Origin: an uncultured Eubacteriales bacterium
Lineage (GTDB): Bacteria > Bacillota > Clostridia > TANB77 > CAG-508
Reading direction: 5' to 3'
Length of the DNA: 64,000 nt
NCBI GenBank assembly: GCA_949288185.1
Contig: CASEIZ010000065.1
Location: forward strand, 4,962-68,961
Under the pieces are notes generated by a model, which was not told where the DNA came from, searched no databases, and saw only the letters and a list, made by a program, of their open reading frames with translations. Below are positions 55,579 through 57,032 of this stretch, piece after piece (positions within the stretch are counted from its first letter, which is position 1; the number at the start of each line of letters is the position of its first letter). The position numbers were made by a program, and so were the translations under genes.

Positions 55579-55932
55579 TTATTTTTTATTCCTAAATAAA
55601 TTATCTATATTATATTTTTTTCTAAGATCTTCTTCGATTTGAAATTGCATGTCCTTTAAAGTTTGTGCATCTCGCATTTGCATTTGTTTTTTTTCTTCAT
55701 CTGAACATAAATAATCTCTCCATATAAGTGAAATGATACCTAGAGTTTCATCCATAAAGGTTTGTTCTTCTATGGGAATTGTTTGGTCTAAAAGAAAAAA
55801 ATAATTTATATCCATATTTTCTTCTATGAAAGTTAAGAATTCAATAGGAATTTTTTTTCGAACATCATCATCAATAGATTTTAATATCATGTAAACTTCT
55901 TTAAAAGCTTTTCCATAATTTTTTTTATCCAT
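55579..55932 (-). CDS. Small partner protein (long member of the family at 51716..51940)
   Basis: See the alignment above. The C-terminal extension is RDAQTLKDMQFQIEEDLRKKYNIDNLF. The ATG at 55932 overlaps the upstream stop (ATGGATAA). Confidence 0.65.
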   Translation of the reverse strand: MDKKNYGKAFKEVYMILKSIDDDVRKKIPIEFLTFIEENMDINYFFLLDQTIPIEEQTFMDETLGIISLIWRDYLCSDEEKKQMQMRDAQTLKDMQFQIEEDLRKKYNIDNLFRNKK

Positions 55933-57032
55933 GTATTTCTTCACCTTCTTTAGATTTTTCTATAATTCTTTTAGAAAGTTGAATTTCTTTTAGGTCACTC
56001 ATAGCAGAAACTCTAAAATTCTCACCTTTGGATGCTAATAATCTTATTTGAGATTCAGATGTATTGTATTTATTACCTCGTATGTCAGAAAAATAGGTAA
56101 CATTTTCTTGCCCATAGCGTAAAGTATTGTGTAAATGCATTTCGTCAAAAATAAGAAGTTCTTCAGGTGTTTTTATTTTAGGTGCTAATGCGCAAACAAA
56201 AAAGGCCGAATCAAAAATCATGTATCTTCCATTTTTCTCAATACAATTGAAATGATGATCTTCTTTTTGTCCTTTACTATTAAATGTTTTTCCTTGAATC
56301 ATAAAAGTATTATAACCTAAGAAAGATAATACATTTTGAGACATGAGAGCATATTCAGTACATTCCCCAATATTTAATCCTTTAATTGCACTTATCGGAA
56401 TAGGAATTATCCCACCCAAATTTTCATTTTCATAAATTTGATTAACTAAATCCTGTCTTTCAGTAATATTTTTTTGTTCTAGATAATATTGTTTTAATCT
56501 TTCGCCAAAATCTTCTCTTATATAAGTATGGCTTTTTCCTTCTTTAAGCATTTGTTGAAATACAATCAAACTATCTTTATTTGGTTGTGCTGATGAGAAA
56601 TAATGTCTAATACCATTAATTAAATTACCGCATCTGTAATGCATTGATTTGTTTTATTTCTGATACATGATTGCGTATATATGAATCAATAAGAATTTTG
56701 AAAATTTCTTTTTCATCCATCCAATAACAGGTGGTATCTATTAGTCCAAAACCTATTTTTTCATCATCGCTTATAAATCCTTGAATAAAATTCTTTTTAC
56801 TACTGTCGGAATTACGTTGCATATTCTTTTGATATTCTTCAGAATTTAAATACTCTAATCTTTCTGCAACAATATTTTCTGTGGATTTTTCGTTTTCAAT
56901 TTCTTGTATCAATCCTTGTAAATCTAAAAACATTTTTTTAAATTCCTTTATATTTATTAAAAGTCGAAAATTATAAAATATTAAATTCTTAACTTTTAAT
57001 AATATTTTATCATTATTTATACTTTTTTGCAA
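55925..57032 (-). pseudogene. Transglutaminase/papain-like Cys-His-Asp enzyme, annotated as two ORFs that fuse by a +1 shift at the terminal CGG (56630-56628)
   Basis: ORF 56625..57032 ends ...INALQM-CGG-TAA. Skipping the C reads GGT AAT TTA..., which is GNLINGIRHYF..., in frame with ORF 55925..56644. Candidate triad NIGECTEYALMSQNVLSFLGY ... EDHHFNC ... MIFDS. The start may be the ATG at 56933. Confidence 0.45.

Follow-up and report, generated by a model that had tools for sequence, protein, structure and literature searches.

This report concerns a pair of genes on the minus strand of a 64,000-nt stretch of contig CASEIZ010000065.1 from an uncultured Eubacteriales bacterium (the window; all coordinates are positions within it). 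The smaller gene belongs to a family found tightly beside many unrelated large genes, and the pair exemplifies a widespread, unannotated type of two-gene module that combines one conserved family of small partners with many unrelated effector families. To the fuller reading, that 55579..56933 is a two-gene operon for a cytoplasmic 335-amino-acid (aa) enzyme and a translationally coupled 117-aa acidic helical partner that would control it, we give about even weight as a whole. In this genome the enzyme gene is split between two frames and was probably inactivated recently. The features of the locus are as follows.

57108..57181, plus strand: tRNA-Gly gene, the upstream border of the three minus-strand open reading frames (ORFs)
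56970..56999, minus strand: promoter-like TTAAAA-18-TATAAT, ~37 nt upstream of ATG 56933, from a consensus scan only
56625..56933, minus strand: ORF1, N-terminal enzyme segment (residues 1-102), running from ATG 56933 to CGG (56630..56628) and TAA (56627..56625)
56625..57032, minus strand: ORF1 in its longest reading, from a TTG that is not the real start
56624..56633, minus strand: frameshift site ATG-CGG-T-AAT, with one base more than the homologues
55925..56644, minus strand: ORF2, C-terminal enzyme segment of 239 aa, holding the catalytic core; its homologous part starts at 56626
56362..56360, 56257..56255 and 56212..56210, minus strand: codons of Cys191 (GECTE), His226 (HHFN) and Asp241 (FDS)
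55579..55932, minus strand: small partner gene, 117 aa, with an acidic helical core and without the C-terminal amphipathic helix
54960..55511, plus strand: peptide deformylase (PDF) gene, convergent, the other border of the three ORFs

The count of promoter-like sites in the scan was not above the shuffled expectation. The two enzyme ORFs named in the first-pass annotation (56625..57032 and 55925..56644) were both confirmed, with 20 nt in common (56625..56644), and the overlap that it had noticed between the partner gene and the enzyme stop codon measured 8 nt, with the partner ATG (55932) lying within ATGGATAA.

A small partner family beside many unrelated proteins

The window holds a second pair of this kind, which the first-pass annotation had already likened to the first.

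51947..53155, minus strand: 402-aa putative effector of the second module, ADP-ribosyltransferase (ART)-like by motif only, on a strain-specific Rep/MobV element
51716..51940, minus strand: second partner-family gene, encoding just the core domain (74 aa), immediately 3' of the 402-aa gene

BLASTP aligned the 117-aa partner with the 74-aa protein at E=1e-9 (38% identity over 64 aa). A profile built from distant members only, with no window sequence among them, detected the 117-aa protein at E=3e-34 and the 74-aa protein at E=4.4e-13, the next best of the 433 six-frame window ORFs scoring 0.13. On these comparisons the two small proteins are true homologues, as had been proposed. The name given to the larger protein of the second pair fared less well. 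Residues 143-253 of the 402-aa protein matched the PADLOC model RTas1808 (DRT-associated, i.e. accompanying defence reverse transcriptases) at E=2.7e-18; no ART family was found for the protein in Pfam at an E-value of 1 or better, and no sequence match in PDB. Its R / S-x-S / E-x-E pattern was read by eye only. The label "ART-like" is confirmed by no ART model and is kept here as a lead only.

Searching with the partner profile gave at least 2,641 clusters at 90% identity, all from metagenomes or metagenome-assembled genomes (MAGs) labelled Clostridia, Clostridium or Bacillota, and mostly from guts. No match to the family was found in Pfam, NCBIfam or PADLOC, and PHROG gave a marginal one (phrog_6220, E=0.0037, function unannotated). 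The model of the partner was all-helical, with a predicted local distance difference test (pLDDT) of 87, and no fold neighbour below E=1.9 was found in PDB or BFVD. A typical member has ~146 aa and consists of an acidic core of ~75 aa (isoelectric point, pI, 4.2-5), a charged linker containing EKYNPDNIFKK and a basic amphipathic C-terminal helix (e.g. KWYKKIISKILSIFKK). This helix is missing from both window copies and from many partners of the transglutaminase-like subfamily, the 74-aa copy being the core domain alone. With tblastn, members of the partner family matched none of 72,556 plasmids, and members of the partner and enzyme families none of 50,697 phages; in IMG/VR a single contig carried a relative. 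DNA searches with the region returned matches to the tRNA-Gly gene only.

Some members depart from this plan. In P0054 the partner domain occurs twice in tandem, in P0055 it is fused to an NTP_transf_2 fragment on its N-terminal side, and P0058 has an N-terminal extension resembling the C-terminus of the upstream protein of L078 type, possibly a read-through fusion. The partner allele P0303, on an 84-kb contig, is frameshifted within an A8 run (GAAGAAAAAAAACAA; the region of window 55679..55694), which may reflect homopolymer length variation or a sequencing error.

The neighbourhoods of 97 partner genes were compared in 91 loci from MAGs and metagenomes. In 76 of the 97, an ORF of at least 100 aa on the same strand ended close to the start of the partner gene, at -59 to +47 nt (median gap +11 nt), and 21 of the pairs overlapped. 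BLAST grouped the upstream proteins that reach 100 aa, 81 with both window proteins included, into 39 clusters. Many were without any annotation; the annotated types were these.

L063 and L022: Amidoligase_2 protein
L047, L052 and L036: adenosine-deaminase (A_deaminase) protein of 810-830 aa, also matching PADLOC CARF_ADA
L052: RelA_SpoT protein
L075: Peptidase_S8 (subtilase) protein
L045 type: DUF4116 protein
L040: Sel1-repeat protein
L082: HopA1 protein, weak match
L020: Tox-ART-HYD1 protein, weak match

Two or three modules lay within a few kb of each other in six loci (L040, L047, L052, L054, L075 and L078). At L052 an HD-domain gene (small alarmone hydrolase-like), a 386-aa RelA_SpoT gene and a partner gene occupy 5474..7761, directly following the 810-aa adenosine-deaminase gene with its own partner gene. 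Partner identity had a median of 63% within the same effector cluster and of 36% (maximum 63%) between different clusters, and close relatives of the window partner (at least 50% identity) were always downstream of the transglutaminase-like family. The partners thus form a separate lineage for each effector type, which argues for a specific functional pairing and not for a generic backbone gene of mobile elements. The first-pass annotation had taken "enzyme plus partner" for a recurrent, apparently undescribed type of module and had suggested searching for co-occurrence; this search bears it out, with the partner family tightly beside at least 39 unrelated families and often several modules per locus.

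The acidic/Gly tails of the upstream proteins probably reflect the embedded ribosome-binding site of the partner gene. A C-terminal docking motif shared by the effectors was also considered and rejected: a Gibbs motif search of the upstream proteins reached an information content of 13.8, within the range of 13.2-14.1 obtained from shuffled sequences.

The enzyme and its split gene

ORF1 ends in ...CAG ATG CGG TAA and ORF2 lies in the +1 frame, so that skipping one base after CGG joins them; read from ATG 56933, the joined protein has 335 aa. A search of 5.8 billion proteins with this sequence found 15 uninterrupted homologues of 321-330 aa (54-65% identity, 97-100% query coverage), and also one 239-aa protein 98% identical to ORF2. 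The alignment was free of gaps at the junction (...NALQMRNLINGIRHYF in the window, ...N.LP..NL..G.RHYF in the homologues), and the ORF1 segment matched residues 1-102 of the 15 single-ORF proteins. Against the profile of the enzyme family (A1), ORF1 scored E=1.5e-46 and ORF2 E=4.7e-121. By these alignments ORF1 and ORF2 are the halves of one ancestral gene. Since all homologues begin with MF(L/N)NLQEL, the true start is placed at ATG 56933 and the ancestral protein at ~330 aa. The joining of the two ORFs seen by the first-pass annotation therefore stands as a reading of their ancestry, and the length of ~368 aa, counted from TTG 57032, is corrected to 335 aa.

The split site ATGCGGTAAT was identical in three independent metagenome contigs (L008, L010 and L011) that are 99.4-99.8% identical to the window, and it was also present in all eight further strain contigs retrieved via the partner protein, on which the gene callers had predicted genes of 102, 239 and 117 aa, the 102-aa gene corresponding to ORF1. 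The 239-aa ORF occurred as 34 alleles on at least 80 contigs (NCBI, ENA and Logan), with both half-ORFs open in every allele. No intact form of the enzyme above 65% identity was found in the 5.8-billion-protein search: the split was common only to strains at 96% identity or more, and all 15 homologues at 54-65% identity were single ORFs. As far as these sequences tell, the split is real and fixed in the sampled strains, but young. Single-base indels are frequent assembly errors; this site, however, lies outside any homopolymer and is identical in more than ten independent assemblies (ENA, Logan and NCBI), and because of this an artefact hiding an intact gene is effectively excluded.

The first-pass annotation had proposed that the terminal CGG is bypassed by a +1 event, in which case the ribosome would stall at CGG-UAA and shift, giving a low, regulated yield of the 335-aa protein; a related proposal would make the two halves a two-subunit enzyme. 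Ten other window genes, with 3711 codons between them, use no CGG (genome GC 26%), and at the split UAA stands directly 3' of this codon, which with CGG otherwise unused is the context of a slowly decoded A site; the fixation of the split in all sampled strains and the two open halves in 34 alleles also favour these proposals. Programmed +1 shifts of the prfB type combine a slippery codon of the CUU-U type with a Shine-Dalgarno (SD)-like stimulator. The window site resembles them in the in-frame stop right after the shift codon and in the slow decoding context, but it has no such slippery P-site codon (on moving from CGG to GGU the tRNA cannot re-pair), no SD-like stimulator in the 15 nt upstream of CGG, no upstream homopolymer and no conservation among homologues, a shift at this site being found in none of the 15. 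The internal ATG of ORF2 is not preceded by an SD sequence. The lone CGG is itself accounted for, since an ancestral ATG CGT AAT or ATG GGT AAT becomes the window sequence on insertion of one base (one homologue reads M-G-Y), so that the insertion itself creates the CGG in a neighbourhood of CGG-free genes.

Polymorphism was examined in 16 ORF2 alleles (the window sequence and 15 listed cluster members). Seven of the 17 variable residues fell where the intact homologues are conserved to 90% or more, compared with 6.4 expected by chance (P=0.72), and one variant, G189E, affects a family-conserved position two residues from the catalytic Cys. Contig-weighted amino-acid diversity per site was 0.0094 for ORF2 and 0.0024 for the partner, a fourfold difference. 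Among four strain contigs all six coding differences in ORF2 were non-synonymous, a number too small for significance. Conserved residues are thus hit at the chance rate and diversity exceeds that of the partner, which suggests relaxed constraint on the split gene. Taken together, a fixed one-base insertion is the likelier origin of the split, and a programmed shift or a two-subunit enzyme is quite improbable. On the sequence evidence the enzyme gene was probably inactivated recently and the partner kept, the split itself being most likely what inactivates the enzyme.

Other members of the class are split as well. At L018 (3876..4944) a divergent homologue of the enzyme is likewise broken into two frames (70 aa + 257 aa), again with a partner gene of its own downstream, a disruption of this effector family that arose independently. 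Besides the window and L018, split effectors were seen at L029, L041/L048, L067 and L072, and some neighbour genes were split too, in a sample too small for a comparison of rates.

The first-pass annotation had recognised a Cys-His-Asp arrangement of transglutaminase-like type in the C-terminal half. Cys191 (GECTE), His226 (HxFN) and Asp241 (FD) were invariant in the homologues, all 15 of which keep the triad. The AlphaFold2 (AF2) model of the joined enzyme (pLDDT 70; predicted TM-score, pTM, 0.67; local pLDDT 65-79 around the triad) consists of a helical N-terminal region of ~170 aa and then the catalytic core, in which helix 192-204 starts right after Cys191, strand 223-233 contains His226 and strand 236-241 finishes with Asp241; four strands come after the helix.

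A Foldseek search of PDB with the model gave no strong match (best E=9e-3). Nearly every informative match was to a transglutaminase-like or papain-fold protein: TglA of S. pyogenes, which was the best structural match, CPR-C4, the pseudomurein endoisopeptidases PeiP/PeiW, the putative cysteine protease 3isr of Cytophaga, arylamine N-acetyltransferases (NATs) and vasohibins. A core of 56-75 residues superposed at a root-mean-square deviation of 2.2-2.9 A with a Foldseek probability of 0.96-0.99, and the TM-scores were low because the core alone aligns. The literature on TglA yielded nothing usable. The best Pfam match of the enzyme was NAT (E=0.0012; 19.1 bits, under the cut-off of 22.8), and PDB profiles gave a weak match to a transglutaminase-like domain around the Cys (E=0.27). 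The profile and structure searches that had been suggested for the fused protein therefore point the same way, at sub-threshold strength in Pfam.

Among 1.84 billion representatives, 223 relatives were detected with the enzyme family profile; the remote ones align in the catalytic core only. Among 82 remote relatives, Pfam recognised DUF553 in 11 (best 5e-6), NAT in three, Transglut_core in two, and Transglut_core3 and Gln_amidase in one each; the Cys, His and Asp were invariant or nearly so. Like Transglut_core (PF01841), DUF553 (PF04473) and NAT (PF00797), the window enzyme has a Cys at the N-terminus of a helix and the His and Asp on later strands; unlike them, it stays under every Pfam gathering threshold and has a family-specific helical N-terminal region of ~170 aa. 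The triad, the model and the remote relatives agree in supporting a predicted transglutaminase/papain fold with Cys191-His226-Asp241 for the core, which could act as a peptidase, a deamidase or an acyl/amide transferase. No signal peptide was evident on the enzyme.

Vasohibin, a structural neighbour of the enzyme, also has a small all-helical partner, SVBP. The vasohibin-SVBP pair is eukaryotic, SVBP has no sequence relation to the partner family and the fold E-values are 0.37 or worse; the likeness is an analogy only.

Mobile elements and strain variation

All ORFs within ~5 kb of the modules were clustered in 66 loci of at least 5 kb. Recurrent neighbours were a MobV (Mob_Pre) relaxase (9 loci), a large serine recombinase (6 loci) and a RepA_N-type initiator; secretion genes were not among the recurrent neighbours in this range. 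The pairs are common cargo both of small Rep/MobV mobilizable elements and of variable spots in the chromosome. Modules also occurred in plain chromosomal contexts, far from any relaxase.

49550..50803: MobV relaxase of the window

The rep-mob segment of L081, 94.6% identical to window 48150..50801, is joined straight to the 3' end of a tRNA-Pro gene, and the partner module that it carries is a different one. Twelve base pairs of the tRNA-Pro 3' end (TCACCTCGACCA) recur in the window as direct repeats at 46466..46477 and 48150..48161. Between them lie 1.7 kb with genes for a Fic-like protein, a 124-aa protein and a NUDIX protein, a segment that the repeat parts from the Rep/MobV element. Because the repeats bracket the Fic/NUDIX segment, while the Rep/MobV element of L081 abuts the tRNA directly, two elements appear to have been inserted in tandem at tRNA-Pro. 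No further copy of the tRNA-Pro end that would bound the Rep/MobV element was found beyond the repeat at 48150, and its right end was therefore set near 54128 by strain comparison only.

The block ORF1-ORF2-partner-PDF-88 aa-XRE was conserved in all eight strain contigs examined, as was the far flank (TM1266-like, Rieske/DAO and peptidase M18 genes). Synteny breaks at ~54128, inside or beside an XRE/TM gene (53827..54222), and the region is variable leftward to ~48162. The Rep/MobV element with the 402-aa + 74-aa module was present in the window and L108 only and absent from the other strain contigs, which past ~54128 carry AAA+WYL+DUF2779, HNH, Abi_alpha and Fic genes, or ordinary chromosomal genes, or V-ATPase genes. 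The variable region looks like an integration and defence hot spot. Since one flank is conserved and the other varies between strains, the two window modules are neighbours at this hot spot and do not share "one island", as the first-pass annotation had it: the module with the 402-aa protein is on a strain-specific Rep/MobV element and the transglutaminase-like module lies in the conserved flank.

Elsewhere in the window, a single ORF of about 2,483 aa occupies 27188..34639 on the minus strand.

Possible roles of the partner

By analogy with known systems, enzyme and partner may form a conflict-type effector with a cognate small partner, a proposal that shares the even weight of the operon reading to which it belongs. 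The partner would bind its cognate effector and control it by neutralising or regulating it, much as promiscuous antitoxin domains do; together the two would make up a toxin-antitoxin (TA)-like addiction or defence module; and in this genome the dangerous half would have been disabled and the partner retained. A toxin-antidote pair would be expected to lose its effector and keep its partner, and the pattern seen here fits. The gene arrangement is that of the bicistronic pairs of type II TA systems (an 8-nt overlap here, a close neighbour in 76 of 97 members), and, as with promiscuous antitoxins, one partner domain goes with many unrelated families (39 BLAST clusters among 81 upstream proteins, with diverse Pfam domains). 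Searches of Pfam, NCBIfam and PADLOC detected neither DUF4065 nor another known antitoxin domain in the partner, and those of PDB and BFVD returned no matching fold.

The Panacea (PanA, DUF4065) antitoxin domain neutralises or regulates dozens of unrelated toxins, including RelA/SpoT-type proteins (PMC8832971, PMC10440598). The partner family resembles Panacea/NetFlax in being one small domain in two-gene modules with dozens of unrelated proteins, RelA/SpoT-type included, and in its occurrence on mobile elements and in defence-rich regions. It differs in having no sequence match to DUF4065 or an antitoxin model and no fold match, in being usually the downstream gene, and in mostly carrying a C-terminal amphipathic helix; its effectors are much larger and include non-enzymatic repeat proteins.

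Several observations weigh against a toxin-antidote operon as proposed. The window protein itself owes its fold assignment to sub-threshold matches. The pseudogene interpretation depends on a small number of polymorphisms and on counts of contigs that were not sampled independently, and both half-ORFs are still open in all alleles observed. Gene order varies, the large protein trailing the partner by 2-40 nt at some loci. One such downstream protein carries Transglut_core (Pfam), and the A1 profile left the downstream proteins undetected save for one weak match. The effectors are large (200-830 aa) and some are repeat proteins (Sel1, DUF4116), not obvious toxins. The RelA/SpoT-type protein of L052 is already adjoined by an HD-hydrolase gene, a possible antidote. 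A docking motif shared by the upstream proteins was not found, and a C-terminal seed hidden Markov model recovered its own members only. Finally, the basic amphipathic C-terminal helix of most members fits a membrane-targeting adaptor at least equally well.

An adaptor or chaperone role is the main rival to the antidote reading. The acidic core would bind the effector and the basic amphipathic helix would direct the bound pair to the membrane or into a pathway of export or transfer, such as the conjugative apparatus used by MobV elements or holin-type release. Small conserved genes that flag variable effectors are known among type VI secretion system (T6SS) adaptors (DUF4123/Tap-1, Eag/DUF1795) and type III secretion system (T3SS) class I chaperones, and the chaperones are acidic. 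The partner, likewise a small conserved acidic gene product beside highly variable effectors, differs from them in the lack of a nearby secretion apparatus, in its Gram-positive hosts and in the lack of homology. The acidic core (pI 4.2-5) and basic amphipathic tail of most members, the frequent position of modules as cargo beside MobV relaxases, the effector specificity of the partners, and the HopA1-like, ART-like, subtilase and Sel1 effectors, of kinds typical for delivered effectors, all speak for this role. It is nevertheless rather doubtful, routes included: no secretion genes recurred within ~5 kb in the 66 loci, no signal or docking motif common to the effectors was detectable, the amphipathic helix is absent from both window partners and from many partners of the transglutaminase-like subfamily, and many modules lie in plain chromosomal contexts.

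The association with Rep and MobV genes and the high variability of the neighbour genes would also suit a backbone or regulatory gene of mobile elements, controlling transcription or replication, with cargo inserted beside it and no functional pair. This is improbable, given the tight, often overlapping junctions across 39 unrelated upstream families, the co-divergence of partners with effector type (near-identical partners were never beside unrelated effectors), the pairs far from any relaxase, the loci with several partner genes, each with its own large neighbour, and an acidic core that speaks against DNA binding.

Short of a choice between the antidote and adaptor roles, and with a little less assurance than attaches to the operon, the small acidic helical protein may represent an undescribed effector-specific partner family, an antidote or a membrane-targeting delivery adaptor, that goes with dozens of unrelated, mostly unannotated effectors on MobV elements and variable islands of gut Clostridia.

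The window enzyme gene, being probably dead, is of modest interest by itself, and the partner gene matters more. Its family comprises thousands of sequences outside the models of Pfam, NCBIfam and PADLOC and outside solved or viral predicted structures, has been met only in uncultured gut Clostridia/Bacillota, and reliably marks a locus-specific large neighbour, whether transglutaminase-like, ART-like, adenosine-deaminase, RelA/SpoT-like, amidoligase, subtilase or unannotated. If the partner is an antidote or an adaptor, guilt by association could lead through it to many new toxin and effector domains of the gut microbiome, and it would join Panacea, to which it is unrelated, as a second case of a small domain that serves many types of effector. 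If it is an adaptor, it would point to a new way for small mobilizable elements to deliver or deploy proteins.

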